Made by a program: the position numbers and the translations under genes. A DNA stretch of 37,419 bases from IMG/VR virus record IMGVR_UViG_3300015370_000006, positions 1 through 37,419 of that record. The stretch is one strand, 5' to 3'. This document shows positions 839 through 36,886 of this stretch, piece by piece. Numbering within the stretch: position 1 is the first letter of the stretch; the number at the start of each line of letters is the position of its first letter. The DNA comes from a virus. Its lineage: Duplodnaviria; Caudoviricetes. The notes under the pieces are model-generated. The model was given only the letters and a program-made list of their open reading frames with translations, was not told the origin of the DNA and searched no databases.

Positions 839-852
839 CGTCCTTTTTTTTT
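821..852. terminator. Bidirectional intrinsic terminator
   Basis: AAAAAA-GACGCT-GTGT-AGCGTC-C-T run between convergent genes. Confidence 0.8.
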
Positions 853-9954: not shown

Positions 9955-11589
9955 TTATTCGCTATAAGCCGTCCAGTAAACGGTCGCTGTTGTTATGTAG
10001 TCACTTGCTGATAATGTAAAGCCTGTTTGGGTTTTGCTTGTCACCGTCCCCGCGTTTTCAACTTGTGAGGCGTTAGCGTCGTAAACATACCAAGCCTTAG
10101 CTGTTACTCCACCATGAACTTCTGTACCTAACCCCTCTATATAAGTACATCTATTCGAGTCATCTCCAATTGACATGCCCCCCTGCGCTTGCGTTGTTCC
10201 GGCTGTTACTTCAATCCTTGTTGGATAAAAGCCTGTTGTCTGGGCATATGTTGTAGATGATGTAACAGATTGTGAACCGAGCCTTATAAACTTAGGTTCA
10301 ATAACTCGGAATGATGTTGTCGATAATGCCTGTGCTACTTTCGCTGGGCGTGTTGCGTGAGGGGTTACTGAAATAGAACCAGTTGTTCCTGATATATAAT
10401 AATATGATCCGGCTGTAAGGCTTGACGCTCCCGTTACAACTGCGCCGGGCTTTGCAAATCTTACCGTTTCATCTGCACCAGTAGCCGCGTCAAGAGCAAA
10501 GCCAATAAAAGAATATGTACTCTCGTCACCGTCCGCGTCCGTTTTATAAAGTTTTCCATCGGAGGCTTTAACATAAAGTGAATCCCAATAAGCAAATGCT
10601 TCCCCGGATGTAGACGTACTTTCGTTTTGAGATACCATCGTTTGAGATTGACTATAACGTGTTGGGTCATCGCTACTATCCGCGTCCGTACTGATTTGGA
10701 ATTGATCTGCGGTAGTTCCTGCTGTTAGGTCTGAAATGGTTATTGCTGTTGATGATGAGATATGTAACCCTCCATTTGTAAAATTAAGGCCTCCACCAGT
10801 CAATAAATCTATATAAATCTTTGAGTCTGTTATGCCTATGCCTTTTGTTGTTGACGCTGTAAGGCCACCGGCCGCACCCGAATTGATAGCCACCGTTGAA
10901 ACGCCATCGTCTGAATACTGCCATTCATTTGCTGACTCGTTGTATTGTAAAAAAGGCAAGTTAGCGTCCGCATTATCTGCCATTAGTTTTTTGTTCTGTG
11001 ACGTTTCCCCATTACCAAACATGAACGTAGAGCTTGCGGACTCTGTGCCGTTTAGTATCCGGCTTAGAATTGCTAACTGCGGATAGTTCGTCATCTTAAC
11101 CGTAGCACCGCGCCTATGCTCAAATTTTAGGGCTGTAATAGAGGTTTCGCCGTCTTGCACGTCAATGCCTCTCGTTACTACCGTACAAGCCGTAGATGAA
11201 CAGGTAGCGGTCACAAATTCCTCACTTGTTGAACCCTCATCAATTACAAAACCATAAAATCCGGATAATGCCCGGTCTTGTTTGTCCGTACCTCTAACAA
11301 GGGTAAATGTCTCCGCCGTGCTTGACATGCGGGACGCTAGAGAATCTGAATACAATGCAATAACTGTTGGAATAGTAGCACCTACTAGATCGCCGGTTTC
11401 TAAAGTCTGTCCGGCATAAATTAAATCCGGGTTATCAATCCCGTTAAACTGTGCCAACGCTTCAACGGTTGTGCCGTTTCGTTGTGCGATTTTTGATAGT
11501 GTGTCGCCGGGCTGTATTAAAACTTGCGCGGCGTAGGTTGGGAGGGCTACGAAAAGCGCGGCCAACAAAATGTAAAATAGTTTTTTCAT
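9955..11589 (-). CDS. Signal peptide + LysM + tail fibre/spike-like protein
   Basis: MKKLFYILLAALFVALPTYAA; IQPGDTLSKIAQRNGTTVEALAQFNGIDNPDLIYAGQTL is a LysM; Thr/Ser-rich beta body. Confidence 0.8.
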   Translation of the reverse strand: MKKLFYILLAALFVALPTYAAQVLIQPGDTLSKIAQRNGTTVEALAQFNGIDNPDLIYAGQTLETGDLVGATIPTVIALYSDSLASRMSSTAETFTLVRGTDKQDRALSGFYGFVIDEGSTSEEFVTATCSSTACTVVTRGIDVQDGETSITALKFEHRRGATVKMTNYPQLAILSRILNGTESASSTFMFGNGETSQNKKLMADNADANLPFLQYNESANEWQYSDDGVSTVAINSGAAGGLTASTTKGIGITDSKIYIDLLTGGGLNFTNGGLHISSSTAITISDLTAGTTADQFQISTDADSSDDPTRYSQSQTMVSQNESTSTSGEAFAYWDSLYVKASDGKLYKTDADGDESTYSFIGFALDAATGADETVRFAKPGAVVTGASSLTAGSYYYISGTTGSISVTPHATRPAKVAQALSTTSFRVIEPKFIRLGSQSVTSSTTYAQTTGFYPTRIEVTAGTTQAQGGMSIGDDSNRCTYIEGLGTEVHGGVTAKAWYVYDANASQVENAGTVTSKTQTGFTLSASDYITTATVYWTAYSE

Positions 11590-11591
11590 AT

Positions 11592-13412
11592 TTAGCGATA
11601 TTTCTTAATAAGTTTTTTAGCGTATAATCTTATGTCGTGATCAACAACTCTAGTAATTGAAACGTATCCAATCCCCTGCGCAACAAAGCGCAATTGCCTG
11701 TTCTCGAATTTATCAAGCCCTAATTTTAATGCCGTTAGATAATGGTATGCCTCTACATCGTCACCGCCTCCGCCAATTTCCTTTGAACCAATTGTGTTTG
11801 CGCCAACATTGATTGCATTACCAACGTCAACATAACTACCTGTCCCCTCGATTGTGCCAACTAGCGTCCAGCCTCCCCGGTCTGTGTCTATATAAACATC
11901 GTAAGATTGATTTGTTTGTATCTCACCCTCTAGCCATAAATGCCTAACCTTTTTTACATTTTCAATCTGCAAATCTGATATTCTACCCTCCCAATAATTA
12001 TTGATTAAAGAGTCTGAATCATCGAACCCACTAAACAAAGTAAGTACGTTATTAGATATTGACTCACCACCAATCAACGCGCCGTTATAAACTTCAATTT
12101 TTGACAAGTAATAATCGCGAATATCTACGCTCCCCCATGTTTTGTGGTACATGAAAAGCCGGTTGTTTACCGTTGAATCCTCTGTGCGTCCGGTGAATAA
12201 AATATAATCGCTCCATTCAAACATCTGACAATCATCGAATATATAGCCATCAAGTTTTATATTTTCCGTTACTGTTTTTGGTGATACTTCTGATTGTGAA
12301 TTGATATACAATTTTCTAAACCTCGGCTTGCTACCGTCTGAATTGTCTATGTAAAAAATACCAACTGATGATGATATGGCCGCGCGCTTGCTAGGTATGC
12401 CAACCGCATATCTAAACGGCAAATTGGTCGCGTTTGTATCGTCTGCTGTTAGTGTCAAAGCCCATGTCTTATTTTCGTGAAAACAATAATCCGTATCATT
12501 CAAAGTAAAGACACCTTGCAGATCCCCTCCCCCATCATCCTGCCTAAATATAAAACCCTCACCGGCAAGGCGTGTAGCTGATTTGGTAAAGTCTGCAATT
12601 CCTTTACTTGTCGAATCCTCCCATTGATAATCTGCCGTCCCTACGCCCGCATTGCTTAACGTATATTCGCCGGTCATATAGTTGATCGTTCCAGTTCCCC
12701 CAGCGTCCCCGGTTAAAATGCCGTTGTAGTCGTCTGTATATACCTCTCCCGTCCCTGTGATAGTGATAGCAACGCCAAAACACGTCCTCATAGCTCCCCC
12801 AGCCTTAAATGCCAATGTTCCTGTAAGTGAGGTTGTTGCCTCGGCTGTCACGGTCGTATAGGACGCTGTATCAATAAATGACCCATAAAGACCTGTCTTG
12901 TCATTGTCACGCCCCCATAACCACATGCGGTTCTGCTTAATTGCTATCAAGCCCTTAAAATTCTTGGCCGAACTATACATATCCGCGTAGCTGTCCGGGT
13001 TGGCCGTCATCACCTTGAACAAAGAACTTTTAGGCGAACATATCCAAAGTTGCGCGCCGGCGTTTGTATTGTAGTTAGCAAATGAAACGTCCTCACCGTC
13101 CGCGTCCGCGCCTAGAATATCTGACCCTAATTCTACCCAATCCGATGTTGTTGTATCGTAATATTCTACTTTCTGGCCTCTTGATCTCCACGCAATAGCT
13201 GTGCCATCTGATTTGTAGGCGATATGTACACCCGTTACACGTCCACTCCCAGAGGTTTCTGTGCCAATTACATCTGACCCCCGGCTTAATTCGATTTTGT
13301 CGCCCTGTGTCAACCAATTCAAAGAGTCGGCGGCCGCACCATCCGGGATAGATTGTGGTTCGATTGCGTTTACTACGCCATACTTAAAATTTTTGGTTGA
13401 AAATGTTTTCAT
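11592..13412 (-). CDS. Tail nozzle / DNA stabilization protein (P22 gp10 or tubular protein B-like)
   Basis: 606 aa, beta-propeller-like composition, N-terminal GVVNAIEPQSIPDG, follows the adaptor. Confidence 0.7.
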   Translation of the reverse strand: MKTFSTKNFKYGVVNAIEPQSIPDGAAADSLNWLTQGDKIELSRGSDVIGTETSGSGRVTGVHIAYKSDGTAIAWRSRGQKVEYYDTTTSDWVELGSDILGADADGEDVSFANYNTNAGAQLWICSPKSSLFKVMTANPDSYADMYSSAKNFKGLIAIKQNRMWLWGRDNDKTGLYGSFIDTASYTTVTAEATTSLTGTLAFKAGGAMRTCFGVAITITGTGEVYTDDYNGILTGDAGGTGTINYMTGEYTLSNAGVGTADYQWEDSTSKGIADFTKSATRLAGEGFIFRQDDGGGDLQGVFTLNDTDYCFHENKTWALTLTADDTNATNLPFRYAVGIPSKRAAISSSVGIFYIDNSDGSKPRFRKLYINSQSEVSPKTVTENIKLDGYIFDDCQMFEWSDYILFTGRTEDSTVNNRLFMYHKTWGSVDIRDYYLSKIEVYNGALIGGESISNNVLTLFSGFDDSDSLINNYWEGRISDLQIENVKKVRHLWLEGEIQTNQSYDVYIDTDRGGWTLVGTIEGTGSYVDVGNAINVGANTIGSKEIGGGGDDVEAYHYLTALKLGLDKFENRQLRFVAQGIGYVSITRVVDHDIRLYAKKLIKKYR

Positions 13413-13414
13413 AG

Positions 13415-14029
13415 TTACATTGACCCTAAGTCATATTCTGCACCGTAGTCATCCGGCACGGCATTTTCTACTGAACGCCTAGTTATTTGTGTTTGCCAAT
13501 TTACTAATTGATTATGATATAGACTTTTTTGCATAACCATTCTGTCATCCCAAGTATAATTTTTATCTCCTTGATCTATCGCAAAATATTGCTCGGCCAT
13601 TTCATAAGCTATGAGTTCATGCGCGCAAGGCCATACCGGCTCTGTGCTGGCCGTTACTTCGTCCGGGTCATAGATATAAAAGTGATTAACCATTCCCGAT
13701 AGATTTGCGCCTAGAATATAGTATTGACTGTTAGCCATATCCAAATACCAACGCATTGACGAATTAACAAATAACCGCTTTTGTTCAAACGGTATCTGCA
13801 TGTATTTCTCATTGTTGACGTATAGCGCGAGTGTCCGCATATAGTCACTTGGTAAATCTATCGCTGAATTTGTAGCTGATTTTGAACTATCCTCTTTTTT
13901 CAAAAACTCCCAATCACGCTCGCCCTCTACTTTGCGGCGCGCGCCATTTAATAGTTGCAACTCAAAATCGCTATCGAGTGAGTCATCAATCAAATTGCGA
14001 AACATTGTTATAATTTCTGTACCAGTCAT
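13415..14029 (-). CDS. Head-tail adaptor (tubular protein A-like)
   Basis: MTGTEIITMFRNLID..WEFL..IDLPSDY pattern; 204 aa; position. Confidence 0.7.
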   Translation of the reverse strand: MTGTEIITMFRNLIDDSLDSDFELQLLNGARRKVEGERDWEFLKKEDSSKSATNSAIDLPSDYMRTLALYVNNEKYMQIPFEQKRLFVNSSMRWYLDMANSQYYILGANLSGMVNHFYIYDPDEVTASTEPVWPCAHELIAYEMAEQYFAIDQGDKNYTWDDRMVMQKSLYHNQLVNWQTQITRRSVENAVPDDYGAEYDLGSM

Positions 14030-14030
14030 A

Positions 14031-15005
14031 TTAGTTTCCGCGATATGGGTTAGAATTAAAGATATGTTTTATTGGGAATGGCCACTCGTCTACTTCTTTT
14101 ATTGGCACTTCATTCCAACCTCTTATGCCGTACACACTCTTAAAAAGCGTTTCGGCCGTTATGTCCCCCCCAGAAAAAGCTATCAAGGATGGCTCGTCGT
14201 AGGTCTTCACACATAGTGCGGAATGACCTTTTTTTTTGAGTATCTCAATTTTCATAGTTTTTTTAATGCAATGAATCATGGGGCTACCAAAAGGGTAATT
14301 CCATGCGTACTTTAGATATTGTTCATTTTCGCTATCTTCGATAATCCAATATTTGCCATCTACATAACCCACAATAGCAACCTCATGTATGTACGCTTGA
14401 CTAACACTATTCCAATAAACAATACCATTTTTAATATTGTATTGCTGAACATCAACTTGAACCGGCGAATGTTTTAGCCCGGCTTTGATCGCCGTTGCGC
14501 TGTTATCTCCTACCCATTTATAGCGGGTTGTTGCTAAATCCAAGCCCTCCAAGCCTTTCTTTAGTAATGCGCTTGTTAGGGGTTTATAAACCTCATCAAG
14601 TGTCATGTCATCTAAATAAGGATAGTCGCCCTCTTTAACCCAGCCATGTGTTCTTTTCCACTCTGCAACTGTGCGCTTGCTATTGCCACGTCCCCGAATT
14701 GTACCCGAACCCACACCAACAAAAATATCACTAAAATTGATTATCTCATCATAGCGTTTCTTATAAATATACTCATGGATATTATTCAATGAGTATGTAA
14801 CACACATGAACGTGTCGCCTTTGTTATTTCTTTGTAGCTCCGGCTCTGGCCTCTCATCAAGCCATTGGCCATTTTCCATTAGAATATCAAAATCTTCTCC
14901 GGCTTCTCCGCCAAGGATATGATCTTGTTCCTGTGGTTTCTCTACAATCAATGCACCTTTTGGCTGTTTGATTGTTTTGTCGTCTGCAAAAATAATGTTT
15001 TTCAT
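14031..15005 (-). CDS. Papain-fold (C1-like) cysteine peptidase
   Basis: Q..CVTYS, HEVAIVGY, WIIEDS catalytic pattern; ATG 15005 preferred to the track's start at 15029. Confidence 0.75.
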   Translation of the reverse strand: MKNIIFADDKTIKQPKGALIVEKPQEQDHILGGEAGEDFDILMENGQWLDERPEPELQRNNKGDTFMCVTYSLNNIHEYIYKKRYDEIINFSDIFVGVGSGTIRGRGNSKRTVAEWKRTHGWVKEGDYPYLDDMTLDEVYKPLTSALLKKGLEGLDLATTRYKWVGDNSATAIKAGLKHSPVQVDVQQYNIKNGIVYWNSVSQAYIHEVAIVGYVDGKYWIIEDSENEQYLKYAWNYPFGSPMIHCIKKTMKIEILKKKGHSALCVKTYDEPSLIAFSGGDITAETLFKSVYGIRGWNEVPIKEVDEWPFPIKHIFNSNPYRGN

Positions 15006-15091
15006 AATCCTAGACCCTCGCGCAACCAAGGGCTGGGGATTATGCTTATTTCACCACATCCTTGCCATGAGCTGTACTGCAATGAAATAAG
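15003..15091 (-). promoter_or_regulatory. Two tandem hairpins; the second sequesters the peptidase start codon
   Basis: CATAATCC(15003-10)/GGATTATG(15037-44) and CTTATTTCA(15045-53)/TGAAATAAG(15083-91). Confidence 0.6.
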
Positions 15092-15105
15092 GTATTCCAA
15101 CTAAA

Positions 15106-15264
15106 TTACTCGGTAACAGGTGTGTCCTCCGGCAATTTTTCTTCACCCATGACTTCTTCGGCTACTTCCTCAACTGGCGCACTCTCCGGGGTTTCGATCT
15201 CCGGGGTTTCTTCTGTTTCAACCTCTGGGGTTTCAACAACTTCTTGTTTTTCTTCTTCTATCAT
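15106..15264 (-). CDS. 52-aa Glu/Pro-rich protein (not in ORF track)
   Basis: MIEEEKQEVVETPEVETEETPEIETPES..; A-rich start context like neighbouring genes. Confidence 0.65.
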   Translation of the reverse strand: MIEEEKQEVVETPEVETEETPEIETPESAPVEEVAEEVMGEEKLPEDTPVTE

Positions 15265-15331
15265 ATATTTTTTGGGCTATGCCCGTTAAGAATTTTAAGT
15301 AATTTTTAAGTTTACTTTATAAATAATTGAC

Positions 15332-15607
15332 CTACTCAATCCCTTTTTTTAGTTCCTCTATAATCTGAATAAGATAATCGAGCTTTGTTTCCATTTTGCC
15401 AAAATTATTTTGTATTTGTGTTTGATTGAGTTCTAGTTTGATGATACGAGATTTGTTTTCTGCCGCCATTTCATTACAATGCTCTGCGTCATTTTTAACA
15501 TTGAGCGCAAAAACAATAGCTGTAACTGTTGGTATGATAAAAAATGTTATCAAGCCAATCGAGATGGCTGTTTTTTTGTCTATGTATTTTAGTGTTTGCT
15601 CTCCCAT
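15332..15607 (-). CDS. TM + coiled-coil protein (lysis-module type)
   Basis: One TM segment then a heptad-like tail; adjacent to the holin-like gene. Confidence 0.6.
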   Translation of the reverse strand: MGEQTLKYIDKKTAISIGLITFFIIPTVTAIVFALNVKNDAEHCNEMAAENKSRIIKLELNQTQIQNNFGKMETKLDYLIQIIEELKKGIE

Positions 15608-15610
15608 AGA

Positions 15611-15907
15611 TTATTCAACTATTTCTTCTTGTTCATCTTCTGGTTCATCTTCAGAATCTTCTGCCGGCGTTGGCAAAAACTCGGTTTGTTTACCAAAATG
15701 CAAGCCTCCCATGGCCTGTGATCGACCATATATTGCATAGATAGCACCACCCATAGCTACAAGCCCGGCTATACCTTGCATGATTACATCTGCCTCTCCG
15801 GGCAAAACTTCAACACCAAATGCTTTGAGTAGCAAAACAAGTACAGGAAAAATCTGCGCTAGGGTTGCTTTTACCGTCGTTGAATCTAACCAATATTTTG
15901 TTGTCAT
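15611..15907 (-). CDS. Holin-like protein
   Basis: KYWLDSTTV start, two TM segments, IYGR, acidic tail. Confidence 0.65.
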   Translation of the reverse strand: MTTKYWLDSTTVKATLAQIFPVLVLLLKAFGVEVLPGEADVIMQGIAGLVAMGGAIYAIYGRSQAMGGLHFGKQTEFLPTPAEDSEDEPEDEQEEIVE

Positions 15908-15908
15908 A

Positions 15909-16331
15909 TTATTTAGTTTCTTTAATAGTTAGCGTCCCCTCTATAGGGGTTAGTTGTTCGTTTGTTTTTTCAAAAAATGGCTTATTGTATTCTCCATTTA
16001 TTGGTTGCTCATCCTTTGATTTTGCCCCCTCATTGACTAGCTGTATATATTCTTGTAGTTCTTGCCATGTACCTACGAAATGTCCGTTAGAATCGATATT
16101 TGAGCGTCGTTTTGCCTTTAATTCCTCGTACTGTTTGGCTGTTGGTGTGACAAGTTTTTTGTCTTTATCTAAAACTTTGATTGATGTTTCGACTGTCACC
16201 GGCTTAACAAGCTCTACAATTTCAAGCTCTGCGCCAATCATAGGTTCTTTAGTAAGCGTTACCGCCAATAACATTCCTGCTCCAAGAACTGCTACCGAAC
16301 CTACGCCTATGAGTGATTTTGGTATATCCAT
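15909..16331 (-). CDS. Hypothetical protein with N-terminal TM and PMIGA motif
   Basis: Tightly packed in the operon; hydrophobic N-terminus. Confidence 0.7.
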   Translation of the reverse strand: MDIPKSLIGVGSVAVLGAGMLLAVTLTKEPMIGAELEIVELVKPVTVETSIKVLDKDKKLVTPTAKQYEELKAKRRSNIDSNGHFVGTWQELQEYIQLVNEGAKSKDEQPINGEYNKPFFEKTNEQLTPIEGTLTIKETK

Positions 16332-16333
16332 AT

Positions 16334-18451
16334 TTAGTCAATTTGGGTTAGGAATATCTCGTCATAATCTGTATATCCAGCCGCAGATGTTCTGAGCTTT
16401 AGGTTTGATTGTCCGCTTGCCACAAAAGTTTCATCAATATCCTGCCATTCTGTTGAGCTAGTACCTTGCCAAACAGTTGTTATATAGTTGATTATTGCCG
16501 GAGGAAGAGTTCCATCGCCCCTAGCTTTTCCAGTCAATCTATAAGTTTTTCCTACAACGAATGGTGTTTGAAAAGCGTAAGCGTTTGCCCCATTATATGT
16601 AACTCTTAAAAACTGATTGCCCCTATAAGGATCAGTTGTTTCTTTTGTTAATAGTGCATTGTTTGCACCCCAAGCATCTGTACCGCCCGTAATTTCTACA
16701 ACTGATACGTCATCAAACTCTGCATATGTCGTCCCTGCTGTACTGCCTTTTGTCATTCTGACGTAAGTAGCACTTGATTCAAATACTTCTTCAAAGTATT
16801 GCCAATCGGTTGAACTTGTACCAATCCAAATACTCTCAACTGAACCTTGTCCAATCGCTGGGTAAGCTGTGCCGTCGCCTTTAGCCCAACCTGAAACTAA
16901 ATATGTTCCCGTGTTTTCTATTGCACTTGGCTCTCTAGCCGCACCCCAACTGTCCGTCTTCTCAACCCTTAAAACTTGCGTTCCACTTCCACCAGTTCTA
17001 GCCCCTGCCTCTTTTGATAGAGTAGCACTATTGTCTGCCCCAAAAGAAGCAACACCTACCGCCTCCATATCACCATCTGCAAGTTCTTCACTCCCATACG
17101 TCTGCGGATCTTCCATATCGCCGTCTGCCAAAATCTGTTTCGTTCCGTCTTTTAGCTCGCCTTTATATTCGGTAATTTGAATATCGTCAAATTCTGTTGA
17201 GTATCCTGTGGTTGTGCCGGGGTATAAAGCAAAGCTAGTTCCTGTAAAATCTGCTACAAAATCAATAGGTTGCCATTCGGTTGAGGCTGTTCCTGACCAG
17301 TGATAACCTTGAATAGCGCAAGCCTCTGTGGTGATAGCAATTGTTGGTGTATTAGTTCCATCACCCTTTGCCCACCCTGTAACTCTGTATGTTCCTGCTG
17401 TGATTGTTTGATAAACGCAACCGCTTGAACCTGTCCTAGTGATTTTTATGTTTTGGTTGCCATCATATGGATTTGTTGAGTCTTTAACTACTAAAGAATT
17501 AAATGCGTTCCAATCATCTGTACCGCCCGTAATTTCTACAATTGATACGTCATCAAAATATACTGCCGAACTGCTTACTGCACTAACATTAAATAAATAA
17601 AATGCCGTACCAACAGACAAAGAGCTTACTTCAAAATACTGCCAATCGGTTGAGGCTGTACTGACGGCAACTCTACCCGTTGCTTTTTGTATGTATGCAA
17701 TGCCACTTGTACCATCGCCCCTAGCCCAGCCAGTAATTTTATATTTATGACCGTCAACATAACTACCCGATGATTTGTAGCCCCCTGCATAAGCTGTGCC
17801 CGTGCTCTCAATCTTTAAGCTTCGTGTTCCAGAATAAAACACCCCTGTATCTTTCGTTATTATTGCACCATTAACGGAATTATAACCAACCGCAATATCT
17901 TCCATATCACCATCTACTAAAATCTCCGCCCCGTAAGTCTGCGGATCTTCCATGTCGCCATCTGCAAGTAATTGCTTTTCTGCATTGAGTGTTTCGCCAA
18001 CGTATTCGGTGATGAAGATGTCATCTATACTACCATTAAAATCTGTACTTGGAATTATATAAATATAAGTGTTACCAGAACAAACCACATTTTCAGAAAA
18101 CACTCCGTTTGTTGTTCTCGTTATACCAACACCTGTTGAACCTATGTACATTTTAACAGAACCAGAAGTTTGATTACTAACTTTATATGTTATTTTGAAA
18201 GTTTCTCCTAATGTTAATTTAGGTGATGAGTCATGTGTTGAGGCTGTACTACCTGTTGAATGAACCAACTTTCCATCAGTAATATTCCAATTTGAACCTA
18301 AAGCCCATCCATTCGTACCATCCTCAAAATCACCATTTACAACCAACTGCTTTTCTCCCTGAACCATCGCTACTCCACCAAGCGCAACCGCAAAATTACC
18401 CAATGACAATATGGTTGTAAGTGCTAAAAATGCAATGAGTAGTTTTTTCAT
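16334..18451 (-). CDS. Signal peptide + five CBM4/9-like carbohydrate-binding repeats (receptor-binding candidate)
   Basis: Repeated NGDFE/DGDME..Y.vtGWAKGDG..STDWQ..FDDV motifs. Confidence 0.75.
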   Translation of the reverse strand: MKKLLIAFLALTTILSLGNFAVALGGVAMVQGEKQLVVNGDFEDGTNGWALGSNWNITDGKLVHSTGSTASTHDSSPKLTLGETFKITYKVSNQTSGSVKMYIGSTGVGITRTTNGVFSENVVCSGNTYIYIIPSTDFNGSIDDIFITEYVGETLNAEKQLLADGDMEDPQTYGAEILVDGDMEDIAVGYNSVNGAIITKDTGVFYSGTRSLKIESTGTAYAGGYKSSGSYVDGHKYKITGWARGDGTSGIAYIQKATGRVAVSTASTDWQYFEVSSLSVGTAFYLFNVSAVSSSAVYFDDVSIVEITGGTDDWNAFNSLVVKDSTNPYDGNQNIKITRTGSSGCVYQTITAGTYRVTGWAKGDGTNTPTIAITTEACAIQGYHWSGTASTEWQPIDFVADFTGTSFALYPGTTTGYSTEFDDIQITEYKGELKDGTKQILADGDMEDPQTYGSEELADGDMEAVGVASFGADNSATLSKEAGARTGGSGTQVLRVEKTDSWGAAREPSAIENTGTYLVSGWAKGDGTAYPAIGQGSVESIWIGTSSTDWQYFEEVFESSATYVRMTKGSTAGTTYAEFDDVSVVEITGGTDAWGANNALLTKETTDPYRGNQFLRVTYNGANAYAFQTPFVVGKTYRLTGKARGDGTLPPAIINYITTVWQGTSSTEWQDIDETFVASGQSNLKLRTSAAGYTDYDEIFLTQID

Positions 18452-18453
18452 AT

Positions 18454-19707
18454 TTAGTTGCAGAATGATGTGCTAGTAGGTGTTAGAGTTGGATATGTAC
18501 TTGATGTTGTAAATGTCAAAGCTCCGCAACCGTCTGTCGTTCCAATATACATATAGCTCGTAACATCACGCTTACCGAATTTTAGAGTGTCCGGGTACAT
18601 GTTGATTGATTGATTTTGAACATTTCCAGAGCCGTCATGCTCTCCGTACATCTTCATCATGTATTCACCGCCTAATTTTGCGATATAAGAACATTGTTCG
18701 CCTGCTGTTGTGCCTACGCACCCCATATCTGCCCAAGTTAAAAATGATGCCTCGTCTTGGTCTTCAAATGTAAATTGACCTGTTTGAATTGTACCCGGAA
18801 AAGCAACCGTATCAGTACCATCTACAATGCTCCAAAGCGTACCGTCTGTGCCACTTCCATCAACATTTGTGCTTGAAAAATTAAACTCTGTATCGGCTGA
18901 AACATAAGTACCCCAATAATCTAATCCCGAACCGTAGCCAATAACCTTATTGTCATTAGCTCTATTGCTTGAACCGTCCATAATTACATTACCGTCAACA
19001 CCCAGCGTCCCGCCTAGACTTGTATTACCACCAACATCTAGAGTACCCGATAAATCTACATCTGCACCGTGAAATGTTCCACTAGCGTAAACGTCTTTCC
19101 AGCCGCTTGTGACTGAACCAAGATTTTTGGTGTTATTAGTTATGGGTTGAACATCTGCCGTTAAAGTTACGCCATCAATTCTTACTGCTCCCGTAGTTTT
19201 AAGACCATAAGCACCAGCCGTACTATCCGAGATTGTTGTTACAACTCCACCGATATTTGTAATACTTGCGCCTACTGTTCCTGAATTGGTAACGATACTA
19301 CCAAACCTTGCCGTTCCGCTTGCGTAAACGTCTTTCCAAGATAATGCACCTGAACCTATATCATAAGTGTTATTTGCACTTGGCAAAATATCACCTGCTG
19401 ATACGCCTGTGATTGTTGCTGTTGTGGCTGTAAAAGTGCCTACCGTTAATGTATCAAACTCACCGCTAGATGAGGGGCTTAAAATAAGCCTGCCTGCAAC
19501 GTCTGTCGCAAGAGCTGAACCGTAACCATCACGCAAGGTTAGATCCGTTGTGGTCGCATTATAAATGCCGGGTAGATTCCCACTTGCCGGGGTTGCTCCA
19601 ATAACCGGGCTACTAATTAAAGCGCGGCTGATTAAAAATCCGCCAATGAGTGCAAGAAGCCCGAACCCTGCAAACAATATATCGCTATTGAACTTTGGTA
19701 TTTTCAT
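18454..19707 (-). CDS. TM-leader tail fibre-like protein
   Basis: Two P..NNT..lGS....WKDVYASGT fibre repeats; ends shared with two neighbouring genes. Confidence 0.7.
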   Translation of the reverse strand: MKIPKFNSDILFAGFGLLALIGGFLISRALISSPVIGATPASGNLPGIYNATTTDLTLRDGYGSALATDVAGRLILSPSSSGEFDTLTVGTFTATTATITGVSAGDILPSANNTYDIGSGALSWKDVYASGTARFGSIVTNSGTVGASITNIGGVVTTISDSTAGAYGLKTTGAVRIDGVTLTADVQPITNNTKNLGSVTSGWKDVYASGTFHGADVDLSGTLDVGGNTSLGGTLGVDGNVIMDGSSNRANDNKVIGYGSGLDYWGTYVSADTEFNFSSTNVDGSGTDGTLWSIVDGTDTVAFPGTIQTGQFTFEDQDEASFLTWADMGCVGTTAGEQCSYIAKLGGEYMMKMYGEHDGSGNVQNQSINMYPDTLKFGKRDVTSYMYIGTTDGCGALTFTTSSTYPTLTPTSTSFCN

Positions 19708-19708
19708 A

Positions 19709-19936
19709 TTATGGTGATGTTGAGGTTGTAATTAAACGGCCGTGTTGGTCTGTAGCCAATGCCGAACCGTACCCGTCGCGCAAGGTTAAATCAGAGGCGT
19801 TATATATGCCTATCAATCCCCCATTGGATGGTACAGCTCCCAGCATTTCCGGGCTGTTTTTAGTATTAAAGAATTGAAAAACTGACATTAGGGCAATGCC
19901 TGCGATCAATCCTATGGCGAGTTGTTTTATATTCAT
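19709..19936 (-). CDS. Small TM-leader protein, paralog of the N-terminus of 18454-19707
   Basis: GIYNA..DLTLRDGYGSALATD..GRLI is shared. Confidence 0.8.
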   Translation of the reverse strand: MNIKQLAIGLIAGIALMSVFQFFNTKNSPEMLGAVPSNGGLIGIYNASDLTLRDGYGSALATDQHGRLITTSTSP

Positions 19937-19988
19937 ATTTTTATCTCACCCTCTATAAAGAGGGTAAGGAAAAACACGAACTCTCAAA

Positions 19989-20411
19989 CTAATTGCAGAA
20001 TGATGTTGATGTTGGTGTTAGTGTTGGTGTCGTTCCACTTGCTGAAAATGTCATCGCGCCGCAACCATCGGTTGTGCCGAAATAAACATATCCAGTTGTG
20101 TTTGCTTCACCTTGTGAAAGATTGCCTGTTACGTTTGCCGTTGAGGCTGATAGCCCACGGGACGAACTGATAACCTCTGTACCACCTACTGCAATACCAG
20201 CGTCAAAAGTTTCTTGGATATTGTGAACGAGTCCGCCCAAAACTCCATCTGCTCCGGCGTCAATGCCGCTTAGATTAAGAGTTTCTACATTTTCGATCAC
20301 TACAGTTGGTGAAGTTAATGAGCCGGCAAATGCGCCGAAACGCACTAATGCCGCACCCATCAACAATACAACTACGAGGGAAATAGCAATTACTTTATTG
20401 TCTTTGTCCAT
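19989..20411 (-). CDS. TM-leader protein, paralog of the C-terminus of 18454-19707
   Basis: GTTDGCGA.TF......PTLTPTSTSFCN is shared. Confidence 0.8.
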   Translation of the reverse strand: MDKDNKVIAISLVVVLLMGAALVRFGAFAGSLTSPTVVIENVETLNLSGIDAGADGVLGGLVHNIQETFDAGIAVGGTEVISSSRGLSASTANVTGNLSQGEANTTGYVYFGTTDGCGAMTFSASGTTPTLTPTSTSFCN

Positions 20412-20447: not shown

Positions 20448-21644
20448 TTAGTAGCCGGACGAGTCAAGCTGAACGTCTAAGATTTCGTTTGTACCTTGAT
20501 TAAAGGTCTTAACGCCAAAGATTGTCATTGGCATGATATTCATACCGCGCTTTCCTGCAGAAACGGTAGAGGCCATTTCAACGTCCGGGTTAAGCTGAAT
20601 AACAAGGTCGATAGCTTTTTTAACACCTGCTAAACAATGTTGGGTTTCATTTGACCACAAATCTAAGGCCTCTGAACTAGCAACTGTTAGATAAGATTGA
20701 CCCTTGTGATAAACAGTAACGTAAGTCGCGCCATCAACTGCAACCATCTGTTGAACAGTCCTCAGATCTGCGCCGGTAAAGGCTACATGGTTTGCGGTTG
20801 AAGATGTTGGGTTGTTGATTAGATCAACCAAGTTATCAAGTGTTACGGCTGTTGAGGTTGTCTGTAAGACATTACCTGCGGTTGTGCCGATAACAGATTG
20901 AAATGTGAAAACAACGCCGGAGATTGTGATTGTTGCTTCATCTGCGGGATTATCTGCCGGTGTCCATACTGCTGACGCTGTGAGGTTGTTACTCATAAAG
21001 AGTTCTAAACCTCCGTAACGTCCCATGTTGCCAAATTCACCGGTTTTGTCACCCAATAGAGTTTCTTTACCTGCGATATAAGACCACAAAAAATCATAGA
21101 ATTGAGGTGAAAGAACCATGAAACGGTTTGCGCGTTCCATATCAACATTATTCTGATCTAACTTACGGTTGATTTTAGCAATAATGTTAGAAATATTGGA
21201 AACTGATACGGCTATCGGGTTTCCGGCTGTTCCGCCTAAGTCGCCGTCGTCAATTGTATCGCCCGCATTTGTAACTTCGTAAAGAAATTCTGCGTCGATT
21301 GCAACTGCCAAGCGTTCTGCGGCTTCTTCCGCCCAGAGTTTAGCGGCACTCCATTTATTCTGAATCTTATCAACGTCATCAACGTACATAAGAATTGTCT
21401 TTTGTTTGTTGATTTCTAGCTTATCTGTTGTTGCTGTTAAATCCTGTGCTGTTGCGGCTGTGCCTTTAGTGTAATTTTCTACAACTAAATCACTGCGGTA
21501 AGGACGGTCAACTTTAGTACCTATGCTTAATGTTGCTTGTTCCTCTGTGGAGGCCAAAGCCTTATAAACAACTTTCTTATAAAGTTTACGTCCCATGATT
21601 TTGCTCCAAAAAGTAGGAGACATTGGGGTAAGTGTATTGCTCAT
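20448..21644 (-). CDS. Major capsid protein (HK97 fold, P22-coat-like)
   Basis: PTFWS..; VDDVDKIQ; RFMVLSP; GRYGGLELFMSNNL; FGVKTF; follows the scaffold. Confidence 0.85.
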   Translation of the reverse strand: MSNTLTPMSPTFWSKIMGRKLYKKVVYKALASTEEQATLSIGTKVDRPYRSDLVVENYTKGTAATAQDLTATTDKLEINKQKTILMYVDDVDKIQNKWSAAKLWAEEAAERLAVAIDAEFLYEVTNAGDTIDDGDLGGTAGNPIAVSVSNISNIIAKINRKLDQNNVDMERANRFMVLSPQFYDFLWSYIAGKETLLGDKTGEFGNMGRYGGLELFMSNNLTASAVWTPADNPADEATITISGVVFTFQSVIGTTAGNVLQTTSTAVTLDNLVDLINNPTSSTANHVAFTGADLRTVQQMVAVDGATYVTVYHKGQSYLTVASSEALDLWSNETQHCLAGVKKAIDLVIQLNPDVEMASTVSAGKRGMNIMPMTIFGVKTFNQGTNEILDVQLDSSGY

Positions 21645-21678
21645 ATATTTGTTTAACAGATTTTAACCCCATGCTTTT

Positions 21679-22539
21679 TTATCTGCTCTTGCCATTTTTC
21701 GCTGACCATTGATCATACAAAACCATTTGTTCCTCACTCAATCCGGCAAATTGTTCCTCGGTCATACTAGAAAAATCTACTGCCTCGGTTCTACTGCCGC
21801 CTTGTGTGGGCGTTTCGGCTGATTTTTTCCCATCCTGTGGAGATGGATTATCGTGCATGTACTCCAATGCCAACGGGCGAAGTGGGGTATTTATATTATC
21901 TTCAGAAAACACAATCTGTTTTAATGCGTCTTTCTGATCTGCTAAGTGCGGAAATTCTGTAACGATTGCGGCAAATTCTTTTTCAAATCCTTTTTCTTGG
22001 TTTGTTTCATTTTCCGCTAACCTTGCGCGCTCTGTCATTTGCTCGAAGTTATCAAGTTTTTGCTTAATTTCATCCGGCAAGACGTTGCGCTTTGCGGCTA
22101 TATCCACAATTGACTTAACAAAGTCCGTGGTCAAATCCGCGTCCATGCCGTTGCGCTCTGCGAGTAGCTTTGCGGCCTCGGCAATATCGTCTTTATTATC
22201 CTCACTTGGCTTACTGTTGTTGAATTGCGCCTCTAGCTCCTTTATCCGTATCTCACGATCTGCGGCCAATTTCTCGGCCTCTTGTCGCTTATGGCGTTCT
22301 TCATTGTGCTTGCCTACTGGGACGTATTTAACCTCCCTGTTAGGTTTCGCCGGAGGTTCGGTGTCATCGGTTTTATCCTCTACCGCTTCCTCCGTTTTGA
22401 TTTCCTCGGTTTTCACCGGTTCTATCGGCTCGGCTGGCGTTTCGGCCGGCGTTGCTTTATTGCCGTTTTCTTCTGCGGCAATTTCTTCCAAGACTTCTTT
22501 TATTAAGGGGTCTTCGCTCCCTTGAATGTCATCTGACAT
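21679..22539 (-). CDS. Scaffolding protein
   Basis: Acidic N-terminus, YVPVGKHNEERHKRQ, coiled coil, DFSSMTEEQF tail; directly before the capsid gene; ATG 22539 preferred. Confidence 0.75.
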   Translation of the reverse strand: MSDDIQGSEDPLIKEVLEEIAAEENGNKATPAETPAEPIEPVKTEEIKTEEAVEDKTDDTEPPAKPNREVKYVPVGKHNEERHKRQEAEKLAADREIRIKELEAQFNNSKPSEDNKDDIAEAAKLLAERNGMDADLTTDFVKSIVDIAAKRNVLPDEIKQKLDNFEQMTERARLAENETNQEKGFEKEFAAIVTEFPHLADQKDALKQIVFSEDNINTPLRPLALEYMHDNPSPQDGKKSAETPTQGGSRTEAVDFSSMTEEQFAGLSEEQMVLYDQWSAKNGKSR

Positions 22540-22631
22540 AAAGTGATTATTTAATGCGAGGCTTCCCCGCATACCCTATTAAAAGCTAGGGATTACTTAG
22601 AAACGTGATATAGCCCACGTTTGGCGTATTG

Positions 22632-22738
22632 AAAAACCCCCTTATGGGGGTTATTCGTAAACATCTAATTCGGGTAAATCTCGCGGAAAAACCCTCATTA
22701 GAGGCCTACGAATAGCCCCCAAAGGTTGCGAGATTTGT
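22632..22738 (-). promoter_or_regulatory. Terminator/antiterminator-like structured RNA
   Basis: Long stem 22646-22720 is mutually exclusive with the AACCCCC-ATAA-GGGGGTT-TTT terminator; its loop is complementary to 22728-22736. Confidence 0.6.
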
Positions 22739-22751
22739 AAGTTGTAAGGTT

Positions 22752-22997
22752 CTATCTTGCGAATCCTCGAAGTTTCTTCATTCCGGCGTCTTCATTCTCA
22801 CATGAACAAAGCACACGGCCTAAAACATCCTTTACAACAAACACATCTTTTTCTGCATATAACGAAAAACGGCCTTTTGTGGTTAATAACTCTGAATGAC
22901 TAGCTGTTCTCTTTTCCGGCGTAGCTTCTGTTTTAGTTATAACCTCTTTTTCGGCTATTGGTTTTTTGACCTCTTGGGTCGTAGTCTTTTTTGACAT
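22752..22997 (-). CDS. Hypothetical protein
   Basis: ORF packed in the head operon. Confidence 0.7.
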   Translation of the reverse strand: MSKKTTTQEVKKPIAEKEVITKTEATPEKRTASHSELLTTKGRFSLYAEKDVFVVKDVLGRVLCSCENEDAGMKKLRGFAR

Positions 22998-22998
22998 A

Positions 22999-23349
22999 TC
23001 ATTTTTTCTTCTTTAATGACTTAGAAATATTAAATAACGCACCGTCAATAAATTGATAAAATTGGTTACCATGTTCTAGCGATAATTTCATTCCCTGCAT
23101 GATACCGCCTATGAATCTATCGATCTCCCTTTCAAAGATAGAATGTTTCAATACTCCCTTAACTACCTTATGATTTCTACCATCCTCTGATTTTATTTTA
23201 GCACTAACTTGCCTACCACGGTAAGACATGAACATTGTGTCATCTTTTGGGTCGCAAACTATTACTAAATATCCTCTATGGTTTCTAGCAAATTGCTGTA
23301 TGTTAAGCATTTTTCGCGTATAAAACAACGCTTTGATTTTATCTATCAT
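22999..23349 (-). CDS. Hypothetical protein
   Basis: ATGA overlap with the upstream gene. Confidence 0.75.
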   Translation of the reverse strand: MIDKIKALFYTRKMLNIQQFARNHRGYLVIVCDPKDDTMFMSYRGRQVSAKIKSEDGRNHKVVKGVLKHSIFEREIDRFIGGIMQGMKLSLEHGNQFYQFIDGALFNISKSLKKKK

Positions 23350-23681
23350 AGATTGTTGTTAATTTCTGTCGTTAAATCATTTAACTGTTTATCCACATCA
23401 AAAGAGTTAATAAAATTTTGGAATAATTCTCTACGGTCTAGTAGGTTAAGCCGTTCTAAAGGTTCTAAATCCCGCTTAAATAACAAGATCTCGTCAATTC
23501 CTGTGATACTCCCAGCGTACCCGGATATCATATTTTGGATAACATCCAATTTAGCTATTGCACTTTTGGCCTCTAGTTCCTCAATGCTCTTAGCCCATGC
23601 GTCAATCATCATCAACGAGGCCTCATCATATTCTCCACGATTGAGGTTTTGAAGTTTTTTTAAGACGTCTTGTGGTTTCAT
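23346..23681 (-). CDS. Hypothetical helical protein after the portal
   Basis: Position and tight packing. Confidence 0.75.
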   Translation of the reverse strand: MKPQDVLKKLQNLNRGEYDEASLMMIDAWAKSIEELEAKSAIAKLDVIQNMISGYAGSITGIDEILLFKRDLEPLERLNLLDRRELFQNFINSFDVDKQLNDLTTEINNNL

Positions 23682-23682
23682 A

Positions 23683-25632
23683 TTAAATTTGTGTCGGTGT
23701 CATCGGTTGTGCTGGCATTGGCGGCGCGCTTGGCTCTGGCATACCCGGAATTGCTCCCGGCATGGCTGGCATTGGTGCTTCTTCTGGTGTGCCTAATCCC
23801 TCTCTATTTCTAACCTGCATAGCTTTGCGGCTCATATTCTCCATAACCAATTTATCATGTGCTTTGGCGAAGTCCGTTAATTTAGTAAATAGCTCTAAGT
23901 CATCATCCGTGTTATCTGTCGCGAAGTCGAGTATCTTTTGTTGATATGCGGTTGTCGCGCCTCTGAATAACTTGGGTTCTTTGCCCTTGATAATTTCTTG
24001 GATAGCCTCACTTGCACGGGCTAGTACCTCCCTATTGCCGTCATTCTCTGTATCTAAGGCAACGCGTACATCTTCATCATCAAACATGCCGGCAAGTAGC
24101 AATTGCTCCGCTAACCAATTTTGATTGACACTCTTTTTAATCTCTGGGTCTGCTAATATCTGTGCGATTGCTCCCTGTCTACGTTCATTTTTAAGCTCTG
24201 ACATGCGTAATTCATTAGAACTAGACTCAACAAATATATCAACATCCGGGTTAATATCGCTTTTGCGTATCTCGTCCCATGTGACGCCACCCTCACCGAT
24301 CATTTTAACGGCCTGTGCTTTATTCAAGTGTTCGTAACATCCCCACACAAAACGTCTACCTATGGCCGCATGGCATTTGGCATAAGCCTTATTATATAAG
24401 CCTAAGCGGTCTGCTACTTGTTGCATGTTACCTTGATAGATACCAACCTTTTTGTCATCGGACGATCCCTGTGCGGCCGCCGTAACGCCGGATTTCTGGC
24501 CAATAATGCCATCTAACCAATCAACAAGGTTGATCGTTCCGTTAAGTTCTGGCGTCTGAAATTCGTATATACCGCTTGCGATTGCGCGGGTCTTAGTTTC
24601 TCCGGCTTTTACTGATACTAAACCATTTGGCCTATATTCAAGCTCTGCACCATTCGGAAACATATCCGGGTCATAAGCTCTCTGGCCAAAATTACGCTTC
24701 TGGCGATTGTCTAGCTCTTGATTTGCAAGGATTTTGATTACTTCGGCTACCGGTCTAATATCATCCGCCGGCGATTTGCTCCAAAAATTGAACGCGTCGC
24801 GATGTGTAGCCCATGAAGTCCACCACCAAAGTTTACTTTCAAATACCTTTTCTAAAGGTTCGGCGCGTACAGTTAATCCCGTGTTGTAGTCCCATAAAAC
24901 ATAATAGCGTTCACCCTCAAAAACTGTGCCGGATTCGATCAACCTAACCATCCCCTCACCCATGAAATTGTGCATACGACTAGTCAAGCCAATAGCTGAT
25001 AGCCTGTTTGCTTTATTCTGCTGGGTATTGTCATTATCTAAAATCGTATTCTCAACTAAACCATTTACCAATAACATTACGTTCTTTGAATTGTATAATC
25101 CGGCATTTGCTCCGGCTATTAGTTCGCTCTTGCTTTTGAATATATTATCTTCTCCACAATATCGTGCGTTCTCTAAATCTCCGCCGCCTAACGGATCTAC
25201 ATAAAAATCATAAGGGTCTGTGACGTGTAGGTTGAATTTGAACTTTGGGTCACTCTCCGCAAACGTCTTAAAGAGTGCCCGGCCATAGAATGAGGCTAGT
25301 TTCTTTCCGTCTAAGTCCTTTGAGTCAAAGTCATTATCCTCTGATTTGCTTACAACATCATAAAATGCTTGCAATTTCTTTGTTGGTCTAAAGTCCGCTT
25401 CTTCTACCGGGCGGAATTTAATAACCGGCGCGTCATCAATCTTTGATAGTAGGGTATCAATGAACCCCGACATGACGGGCATTGGGACGTTGAAACGTCC
25501 TTTAAGAGTCTTTTTCACTCTCCCGAAGTATTGATCTTCTGTTGCTTGCCAATCTTTAACCCGGCCTTGCTTATAATCAATTCCATTCTTATATTCTTGG
25601 CGTAGTTGTAAAACCAATTTGGTTGTATCCAT
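23683..25632 (-). CDS. Portal protein
   Basis: 649 aa between terminase and scaffold; DPYDFYVDP; Pro/Met-rich tail. Confidence 0.85.
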   Translation of the reverse strand: MDTTKLVLQLRQEYKNGIDYKQGRVKDWQATEDQYFGRVKKTLKGRFNVPMPVMSGFIDTLLSKIDDAPVIKFRPVEEADFRPTKKLQAFYDVVSKSEDNDFDSKDLDGKKLASFYGRALFKTFAESDPKFKFNLHVTDPYDFYVDPLGGGDLENARYCGEDNIFKSKSELIAGANAGLYNSKNVMLLVNGLVENTILDNDNTQQNKANRLSAIGLTSRMHNFMGEGMVRLIESGTVFEGERYYVLWDYNTGLTVRAEPLEKVFESKLWWWTSWATHRDAFNFWSKSPADDIRPVAEVIKILANQELDNRQKRNFGQRAYDPDMFPNGAELEYRPNGLVSVKAGETKTRAIASGIYEFQTPELNGTINLVDWLDGIIGQKSGVTAAAQGSSDDKKVGIYQGNMQQVADRLGLYNKAYAKCHAAIGRRFVWGCYEHLNKAQAVKMIGEGGVTWDEIRKSDINPDVDIFVESSSNELRMSELKNERRQGAIAQILADPEIKKSVNQNWLAEQLLLAGMFDDEDVRVALDTENDGNREVLARASEAIQEIIKGKEPKLFRGATTAYQQKILDFATDNTDDDLELFTKLTDFAKAHDKLVMENMSRKAMQVRNREGLGTPEEAPMPAMPGAIPGMPEPSAPPMPAQPMTPTQI

Positions 25633-25659
25633 AAAACATCTAGCGAGATTTGTTTATGG

Positions 25660-26172
25660 TTAAAAGTTTTTTGCTATTTCTTTTAGCTTCCCTTTTTTTT
25701 CACGCAATAGAATAAACTTGCCGGGTTCGCCCTCAACATTTGATATTGAATACTTGAAATAATCTTTCAAATGCGGAAAAGCCTCCATTAGTAGTCTATG
25801 CAGGCGGGGGGTTTTCTCCATTATAAACTGATCTCGCTGTTTAAGTAAGGCTTGTTGTTTATCCACAATCTGTTTTTTGCTTGGTATCATATGCGTTAAA
25901 TCATTTAATTTATTAGATATTACTTTAATCATCGTATCCCGTAAAATATCGCCGATAGCCTTTAAGTCGTTAGGTTCTGCTAAATCAAACACAATCTCAA
26001 CCCTTGCCGTCCCGGTTTCCGGCTCATAATCAAGGCGCATAGCTAAAGGCGGTTTTGGTATAGAACTATTGACGGCTTGCTTAATCTCCATCGCTTTATC
26101 TGCAAATGGTGTCAATTGCGGTAGACCCTCATTCATTGCTTGCTTTAGTTCGTCTGCGTTGTAGTCTTGCAT
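25660..26172 (-). CDS. Hypothetical protein
   Basis: ORF between terL and portal. Confidence 0.7.
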   Translation of the reverse strand: MQDYNADELKQAMNEGLPQLTPFADKAMEIKQAVNSSIPKPPLAMRLDYEPETGTARVEIVFDLAEPNDLKAIGDILRDTMIKVISNKLNDLTHMIPSKKQIVDKQQALLKQRDQFIMEKTPRLHRLLMEAFPHLKDYFKYSISNVEGEPGKFILLREKKGKLKEIAKNF

Positions 26173-26192
26173 ATCAATCTAAATAAATTACA

Positions 26193-26603
26193 TTACTTAA
26201 ACTTTGGCCAAAGTTTATATTCATTGGTTCTATAAAAAGCTCTTCCAAAATCTGTTATATCAACCTCCCCACCCATGAGCTTAATCAAATCGGCAAGATT
26301 AGCTACTGATTTTTTTGCTCTTTCTTCACTAGGCGCAAAATCCAACCCCATCGCTCCGTCGTGATACACATGCCAAAAACAATAATCATCGCCTCTAGCT
26401 TCGTTTCCCCTTATTTTTAACATCCGGCCAAAATCACTAAGCGCAACATGATCGCCGGATACAACGCTATAATGCTCATCATCAATAGACTTCCCCGCCA
26501 ATGTACCACTACCTCTCTTTATTCCCTCTTGCTCTAGCACTACTCCAAACACTAAAGCTCCATAAATGAAAAATCGTATTTTTAATTTCATATTATCCCT
26601 CAT
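26193..26603 (-). CDS. Hypothetical protein
   Basis: ORF overlapping the terL end. Confidence 0.65.
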   Translation of the reverse strand: MRDNMKLKIRFFIYGALVFGVVLEQEGIKRGSGTLAGKSIDDEHYSVVSGDHVALSDFGRMLKIRGNEARGDDYCFWHVYHDGAMGLDFAPSEERAKKSVANLADLIKLMGGEVDITDFGRAFYRTNEYKLWPKFK

Positions 26604-36288: not shown

Positions 36289-36293
36289 AAACT

Positions 36294-36593: not shown

Positions 36594-36613
36594 ATCACTA
36601 ACCACTAAACACT

Positions 36614-36865: not shown

Positions 36866-36886
36866 ATCACTAAACAAATAAAAACT

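Follow-up and report, generated by a model that had tools for sequence, protein, structure and literature searches.

Predicted export, tethering and glycine-directed release of outer virion proteins in a podovirus likely to infect Patescibacteria

The DNA analysed here (the window) is the 37,419-base viral record IMGVR_UViG_3300015370_000006, a complete 37.4-kb podovirus genome with a terminal repeat of 123 nucleotides (nt), in whose minus-strand virion module six proteins begin with hydrophobic leaders that run up to a hydrophobic residue followed by glycine (Phi-G, Phi being the hydrophobic residue). Comparisons with related phages suggest that the outer virion parts are exported, tethered outside the cytoplasm, cut after the glycine by a phage protease at lysis and added late to particles, and on balance we lean towards this route as a whole. 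Taken singly, export of the outer parts appears very probable and cleavage at the junction glycine probable; late addition of the freed parts to particles is fairly probable, and the phage protease is slightly favoured as the cutter. To our knowledge, tailed phages are held to be built entirely in the cytoplasm. A sequence-only reading of the window had pointed out the six leaders, described them as ending in (L/I/V)-G-(A/G), and proposed either export or membrane tethering followed by C39-type cleavage or a virion that carries membrane.

The six leader-bearing genes, referred to below by their higher coordinate or by their range, are as follows (aa, amino acids; MCP, major capsid protein; a vertical bar marks the putative cut).

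19989..20411, minus strand: post-MCP accessory protein of 140 aa; leader 1-59 (nt 20235-20411), junction VLG|G at Gly59; C-terminal Cys117/Cys139 module also found in 18454-19707.
19709..19936, minus strand: 75-aa protein; leader 1-33 (nt 19838-19936), junction MLG|A at Gly33; mature part corresponds to the N-terminal module of 18454-19707.
18454..19707, minus strand: fibre-like protein (so called from position and composition) of 417 aa with 4 Cys; leader 1-37 (nt 19597-19707), junction VIG|A at Gly37.
16334..18451, minus strand: 705-aa protein with CBM_4_9-like repeats; signal peptide, AVA site before LGG; putative Phi-G junction at Gly25.
15909..16331, minus strand: 140-aa orphan beside the holin-like genes; hydrophobic N-terminus, PMIGA at Gly33; putative junction and putative virion role.
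9955..11589, minus strand: fibre/needle-slot protein of 544 aa; signal peptide 1-20, LysM 25-63, junction LVG|A at Gly70 (nt 11380-11382), then virion-type domains with Cys130/Cys135.

All six open reading frames (ORFs) have hydrophobic N-termini (15-residue Kyte-Doolittle maxima of 2.2-2.9) and the motifs lie where they had been placed, at Gly59, Gly33, Gly37, Gly25, Gly33 and, after the LysM domain, Gly70; the similarity between 19936 and 19707 does begin at the motif. A seventh copy, which had escaped the earlier description, is Gly32 in the pro-segment of the papain-like protease 14031-15005. No hydrophobic N-terminus was found in the core proteins of the window (portal, scaffold, MCP, adaptor, nozzle-slot and ejection proteins). 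The idea that one kind of leader is shared by all six is supported through homologues for four of them, since searches with 15909-16331 and 16334-18451 found none. In 16334-18451 the VALGG motif overlaps the signal-peptidase-type AVA site, and the internal repeats of this protein are called CBM_4_9-like from look-alikes. At the DNA level, positions 18455-18555 and 19990-20090 are 71% identical and encode the common C-terminal two-cysteine module of two leader proteins.

Position in homologues puts the motif to a more stringent test. Of 150 homologues listed for the 11589 family, many matching only through LysM, 94 align at the N-terminal domain, 90 of them leader-bearing and 4 leaderless. The 90 leaders are 24-103 residues long and hydrophobic without exception, across separate 50%-identity clusters, and [LFIVMY]-G directly precedes the conserved domain in 80 of them (in 8 others it lies within a few residues, in 2 it is missing), at a background of 0.021 per position. 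At these 80 exact junctions the invariant glycine is preceded by Leu in 53, Phe in 12, Ile in 5, Tyr in 4, Met in 3 and Val in 3, and is followed by Ala in 41, Ile in 18, Val in 9, Thr in 5, Gln in 3, Leu in 2 and Lys and Ser in 1 each. Because the residue after the glycine varies, being Ala in only 41 of 80 and Gly in none, the motif is better written in the broader form [LFIVMY]-G|X; what survives of the original (L/I/V)-G-(A/G) is the hydrophobic residue and glycine kept at the domain boundary. The junction is likewise exact in 19 of 24 homologues of the post-MCP protein 19989-20411 (near in 3) and in 6 of 8 members of the 19936/19707 family (shifted by one in 2), and in a second, nozzle-anchored set of loci Phi-G lies near the boundary in 11 of 14 leader forms. 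Leaderless homologues beginning at the junction point make up 4 of the 94 aligned members of the 11589 family and 37 of the 51 classified members of the nozzle-anchored set (one unclear row was dropped), and a small-protein family with six leader-bearing and six leaderless members follows the same boundary pattern. Enrichment across related phages, which had been suggested as a check, was also found: among 151 late proteins from 74 de-duplicated related-phage loci, [LIVFM]G[AGS] occurs in the 50 residues after the hydrophobic segment in 93, against 51.6 in 300 shuffles (maximum 66).

Several features of the leaders point to export. Signal peptides and anchors were judged by in-house heuristics that apply the usual rules on charge, hydrophobicity and an [AVST]xA site, and by these the 11589-family leaders resemble Sec substrates: in addition to their uniform hydrophobicity, 83 of 90 have a net positive charge upstream of the hydrophobic stretch, and the [AVST]xA signal-peptidase-type site is present in 46 of the 50 long leaders and in 8 of the 40 short ones. 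The long leaders contain a LysM-like module in 28 cases (by regular expression), a second module of 50 aa in 13 and other sequence in 9. This second module, which takes the place of LysM in L025:20511-20663, L003:12033-12194, L221:11932-12093 and L285:11936-12079, resembled part (positions 35-81) of the endolysin family phrog_2307 in all 4 cases tried, a Pfam search with it gave nothing useful, and it is likely an unnamed wall-binding domain. Since membrane anchor and wall-binding module are exchanged before the same glycine, they behave like disposable tethers. Of the 90 leader forms in the 11589 family, 88 have precisely two cysteines in the N-domain. In the locus sets, the 32 leader forms have two in 30, four in 1 and none in 1, and the 46 leaderless forms have none in 22, one in 16 and two in 8.

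The 11589-type gene comes after the nozzle gene whether the phage is leader-bearing or leaderless. In a predicted model of the mature protein (predicted local distance difference test score, pLDDT, of 88), residues 247-363 match 8qsy_JI of HFTV1 (8QSY; Z 12.2, root-mean-square deviation (rmsd) 2.8, 109 aligned), a cement-type domain, residues 4-140, the N-domain, match 8jov_1 (Z 9.5, rmsd 4.6, 105 aligned), and the C-domain appears fibre-tip-like with a weak score (Z under 8); Foldseek returned no match under E 0.001 for this model. These comparisons suggest that the mature protein folds like virion cement or fibre domains. Leaderless podophage fibres and cement proteins are assumed to be assembled in the cytoplasm. 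The mature 11589 domains match such proteins (GP4 portal-tail complex 8JOV chain 1, HFTV1 8QSY and Adjutor 8SAJ), whereas the 11589 family adds the leader, the cysteine pair and a serine/threonine motif.

This last motif was recognized from the commonest tetrapeptides of the leader proteins, of which ATST, ASST, ATTT and ASTT are the top four. Across 123 leader proteins A[ST][ST]T was counted 241 times against 37 in 20 local shuffles (maximum 43), and across 153 other late proteins 13 times against 21; a replicate gave 56 against 8.4 for leader proteins and 19 against 12.4 for the others. Among phage proteins the motif is largely restricted to exported-type proteins, and neither N-X-S/T nor the Bacteroidota D-[ST]-hydrophobic motif is enriched in leader proteins. 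A-[ST]-[ST]-T may be an O-glycosylation sequon, and together with the cysteine pair it is what exported, possibly glycosylated proteins would be expected to display. That host O-glycosylation at this motif is the reason for export is quite conceivable, though we stop just short of favouring it. In 151 host-class genomes the tandem A[ST][ST]T DNA pattern gave 308 matches in 90 genomes, compared with 112 in 67 for the reversed peptide (totals summed by hand), and none in G001 and its prophage. A set of 25 tandem-motif host loci divides into 4 long ORFs that begin with a hydrophobic stretch, 8 long ORFs clipped at the edge of the locus, 4 ORFs lacking such a beginning and 9 short frames. Tandem copies were seen in long host proteins (G023-G172) and in a pilin-like protein (L169:13291), very unevenly from genome to genome (0 to 17). 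By eye, one or two Wzy_C genes, often of about 750 aa, are present in most of the motif-rich host genomes; in a transferase survey of the 151 genomes, Wzy_C was present in 145 and PMT in 122, too widespread to single one out.

The candidate cutter is encoded within the same module.

14031..15005, minus strand: papain-family (C1A-like) protease of 324 aa; Cys68/His207, no signal peptide, pro-segment junction ILG|G at Gly32 (nt 14910-14912).

The enzyme passes the Pfam C1 cut-off (27.3 bits against 20.7), its best matches are the C1A peptidases mexicain, actinidin and procathepsin K (sequence E 1e-10; Foldseek E 3.5e-9), and its predicted model (pLDDT 92.6) resembles cathepsins, with a papain fold and catalytic Cys and His. 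It differs from C1A peptidases in a short pro-segment with a near-invariant Phi-G, an additional C-terminal domain of 75 aa, for which an atlas search gave no nameable match, and its place in a phage lysis slot. The proposal of a C39-type enzyme had to be abandoned, as no C39 match was obtained at E<=0.01 and all matches in the PDB are C1A; weak C39-type matches were confined to P0201 and L005. C39 double-glycine leader peptidases share with it a papain-like fold and the cut after glycine predicted here. C39 processing was nevertheless rejected as a model: the window protein falls in Pfam C1, the P2 residue is hydrophobic rather than Gly, and the leaders are hydrophobic in 90 of 90 (assuming the cut at the domain boundary). 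No ABC transporter was found among the 36 proteins scanned. Papain prefers a hydrophobic residue at P2, which fits the Phi-G motif.

Cys68 and His207 are invariant in an 82-row protease alignment, in which Gly32 is retained in 81 rows and preceded by L, F or M in 79; in a 22-row alignment at 11-60% identity, Gly32, Cys68 and Gly121 are the only invariant columns. A locus search with the protease as single-protein query found nothing. In three fusions from separate 50% clusters (P0124, P0200 and P0201) a papain-like domain stands in front of a membrane segment, which leads through Phi-G into the mature 11589 protein; P0201 alone scores on the protease profile (E 1e-4), P0124 and P0200 being assigned by alignment to it. 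These fusions have an internal Met before the membrane segment, maybe a second start. Among 151 host-class genomes the protease family turned up in 2, each of which also had a phage MCP match, and at L028:11201-12673 the gene lies in two pieces around a 198-aa ORF, possibly a mobile intron or endonuclease insertion.

In the route that we propose, core particles would assemble and fill in the cytoplasm, while outer virion parts would enter the host Sec system, form disulfides and perhaps be glycosylated, and would remain fastened beyond the cytoplasm, either to the membrane by an anchor or to the wall by a binding module such as LysM. Holins would then open the membrane and give the papain-like protease access to the Phi-G sites, and the parts freed by cutting after the glycine would bind finished particles at lysis. 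A precedent for such late addition is P22, in which tailspikes can be joined to finished heads outside cells. The reason for a tether would lie in the host envelope: with no outer membrane to retain them, parts secreted freely would be lost ahead of lysis, and an envelope of this kind has been proposed for Patescibacteria (PMC12102498). Export or tethering followed by cleavage, as first suggested, is retained on the strength of domain boundaries, leaderless homologues, charge bias, cysteine pairs and swappable tethers, with the provisos that only four of the six cases could be checked and that the enzyme is not C39. A far-reaching version is two-compartment assembly, in which the fibres and decorations of Patescibacteria podoviruses would be secreted, given disulfides, coated with sugar by the host at an A-[ST]-[ST]-T sequon not described before, kept on membrane or wall tethers and freed by a one-time endolysin that has become a Gly-specific maturation protease, with holin lysis controlling its access; this we hold only tentatively, as rather unlikely to be right in full.

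A number of observations weigh against the route. Some leader proteins (P0257, P0261, L034, L055 and L288) lack Phi-G and end in a signal-peptidase site, so that some relatives appear to reach the same N-terminus with signal peptidase alone. The homologue counts are drawn from related sequences and cannot be treated as independent events (an 80-row tree shows 5 label changes), and two of the window's six leaders, 18451 and 16331, fall outside them altogether. The window's six leader proteins contain just 3 A[ST][ST]T, four related phages contain none, and a random sample of 78 host exported proteins had no excess (10 against 8.9). The host assignment depends on one prophage whose MCP is 56% identical, and three further relatives sit in metagenome-assembled genomes (MAGs) labelled otherwise. 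As for the protease, its family occupies the lysis slot among holin-like genes, in relatives it is joined to peptidoglycan (PG)-binding, lysozyme, SLT or DUF5675 domains, three leaderless genomes (G437, G449 and G438) have an M23 or M15 peptidase in its slot, and no amidase was found in the window. All 14 near-complete leader-bearing records contain the papain-like gene, but so do 9-10 of 13 leaderless ones (p 0.04-0.10; near-complete meaning at least 33 kb or at least 90% completeness, with 50 of 80 loci searched whole and G439 and G464 less surely classed); its co-occurrence with leaders, strong in the fetched loci, weakened with whole records and a more sensitive profile. Given the lysis slot, the muralytic fusions and the M23/M15 substitutes, the protease may be only an endolysin. 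C1-type papain domains as endolysin-slot modules (with PG_binding_1, lysozyme, SLT or DUF5675) were noted at L298:2080-3102, L299:1948-3063, L307:8438-10189, L301:2285-3451, L130:7404-8741, L316:15355-16359 and L323:706-1749.

These points about the protease favour an alternative in which export and cutting after Phi-Gly take place as proposed, with a protease of the host envelope as the cutter and the papain-like protein as the endolysin; the window has no other clear endolysin, and in host polytopic membrane proteins [VI]LG[AESTVI] occurs 27 times against 14.8 (raw matches). We consider this unlikely, if worth serious attention. Phi-G is not in excess after host exported-protein leaders, either as [LIVFM]G[AGS] (10 of 78 against 13.3 expected; 3 of 17 in a smaller set) or as the host 'VLG' processing motif (9 against 10.9), and the protease-substrate fusions speak for the phage enzyme. 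In leader phages, moreover, the protease loses its PG-binding domain (PG_binding_1 in 1 of 29 against 5 of 9 in leaderless phages; none matched in the window enzyme) and has the pro-site Phi-G (28 of 29 against 4 of 9), each with p of about 0.001 and the two not independent. It also coexists there with a second endolysin; a separate amidase was seen in 5 of the 15 leader-bearing genomes but in none of the 13 leaderless ones, and G011 has two papain-like genes, one with PG-binding and SLT domains. A quite improbable reading is that the exported proteins are phage-encoded cell-surface proteins derived from virion proteins and serving receptor masking, superinfection exclusion or adhesion. LysM would hold them on the wall, long surface-type proteins with A[ST][ST]T exist in host-class genomes, and 16331 and 18451 are orphans; yet the leader-bearing 11589 gene lies in the same post-nozzle slot as its leaderless orthologues, the conserved boundary coincides exactly with the start of the leaderless forms, and no leaderless fibre gene was seen among the ORFs examined in this complete genome.

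Even less probable is that the leaders are retained, with particles assembling on or carrying membrane and Phi-Gly acting as a mere flexible hinge. The 40 of 90 leaders that are short anchors, mostly without a signal-peptidase site, would suit such an arrangement. Leaderless orthologues, however, have no residue at the Gly position, the phage has holin-like genes besides an ordinary terminase/portal/HK97-type set, and the same Gly is kept in the long leaders although 46 of 50 would leave the membrane via signal peptidase, for which reason the membrane-bearing virion of the sequence-only reading is disfavoured. Chance motifs or miscalled start codons have next to no probability as a general explanation. 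Phi-G is common enough to appear in 116 of 151 shuffled 50-residue windows, and chance may account for 16331 and 18451; an exact position in 80 of 90 homologues at 2% background, with every extension hydrophobic across separate clusters, refutes it for the other four proteins as judged from these alignments.

The proposed route has partial precedents. According to PMC4823517, the Ff phage coat proteins pVIII and pIII use Sec, are held in the membrane before assembly and are proteolytically trimmed, all of which is proposed here from sequence; Ff virions, however, are extruded without lysis and rely on host signal peptidase, whereas the window phage is a podovirus with terminase, portal and holins, would export only its outer parts and would have a second cut site, after Gly. 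A membrane-extruded phage of the Ff type was rejected, as MCP, portal and terminase are leaderless and holin-like genes are present. The adenovirus protease, African swine fever virus pS273R and poxvirus I7 are Gly-directed viral maturation cysteine proteases, and T4 gp21 is a phage head protease. In these systems too, a single protease encoded by the virus removes N-terminal pro-pieces from a number of structural proteins at a short motif that it also carries itself; they differ in protease clan or fold and act on substrates inside the particle, whereas the substrates here are predicted to lie outside the membrane and the capsid proteins are leaderless.

We found no published account of an exported-leader route in tailed or Patescibacteria phages, of a Patescibacteria O-glycosylation motif or of a papain-type endolysin of Patescibacteria phages; the available portions of PMC13059738, bioRxiv 10.1101/2025.02.15.638363 and PMC12647753 describe no virion-protein leaders, although their supplements may list such annotations. 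If the route is true, the parts that recognize the host complete their maturation outside the membrane and are added at lysis, a new assembly principle that couples particle completion to the timing of lysis, and it offers a first handle on protein modification and envelope biology in uncultured Patescibacteria. With a small enzyme and its substrates, it could be tested in laboratory strains without the host.

The minus-strand module as a whole comprises terminase, an SU10-type portal, a scaffold-like gene, MCP, six accessory genes, two holin-like genes, the papain-like protease, an SU10-type adaptor, the nozzle-slot gene, 9955-11589 and two ejection-type genes. With terminase, portal, HK97-type MCP, adaptor and ejection proteins, the window belongs to the short-tailed Caudoviricetes with an SU10/P22-like module. 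Its other features are listed here.

20448..28146, minus strand: leaderless head and packaging genes, with MCP 20448-21644, scaffold-like 21679-22572, SU10-type portal 23683-25632 and terminase 26593-28146.
11592..14029, minus strand: leaderless core tail genes, with the nozzle-slot protein 11592-13412 (named from position; no library match) and the SU10-type adaptor 13415-14029.
15332..15607 and 15611..15907, minus strand: two small holin-like membrane proteins (phrog_297 holin, E 0.004, weak).
33097..33741, minus strand: possible signal-anchored endolysin; N-terminal membrane segment and a weak SLT/lysozyme-like domain (E 0.011-0.013, below cut-off).

Homologues of the window MCP numbered 483 at E<=1e-10 (7,994 scored). 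The relative L034, with a 56% identical MCP, is a prophage that dnaX, mraZ, rsmH, GAPDH, L9 and L27 flank on a contig of 113 kb with the title Patescibacteria group, and one protease homologue originates from Ca. Doudnabacteria. The host is likely an ultra-small member of the Patescibacteria, and only likely because of the three relatives in differently labelled MAGs. The leader-bearing relative L036 (G002:C83) lies on a 103-kb contig in a MAG labelled Vicinamibacterales. In an MCP tree, made as a quick version only, the leaderless accessory modules of L043, L052, L056 and L026 are nested among leader-bearing phages, which suggests that the leader system was gained or lost via module exchange.

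Of the two ejection-type genes, 851-7867 encodes a protein of 2338 aa with sub-threshold RelA/SpoT (1274-1355) and ART-PolyVal (495-586) matches, and 7875-9932 an ejection-slot protein with an SLT domain at 441-519. A strongly acidic 52-aa ORF (15106-15264) separates the holin-like genes from the protease. Shine-Dalgarno-like motifs were seen upstream of only 3 of 24 window genes checked, and an A-rich 19-nt repeat at 36280-36298, 36600-36618 and 36873-36891 reaches into the start codons of early plus-strand genes.

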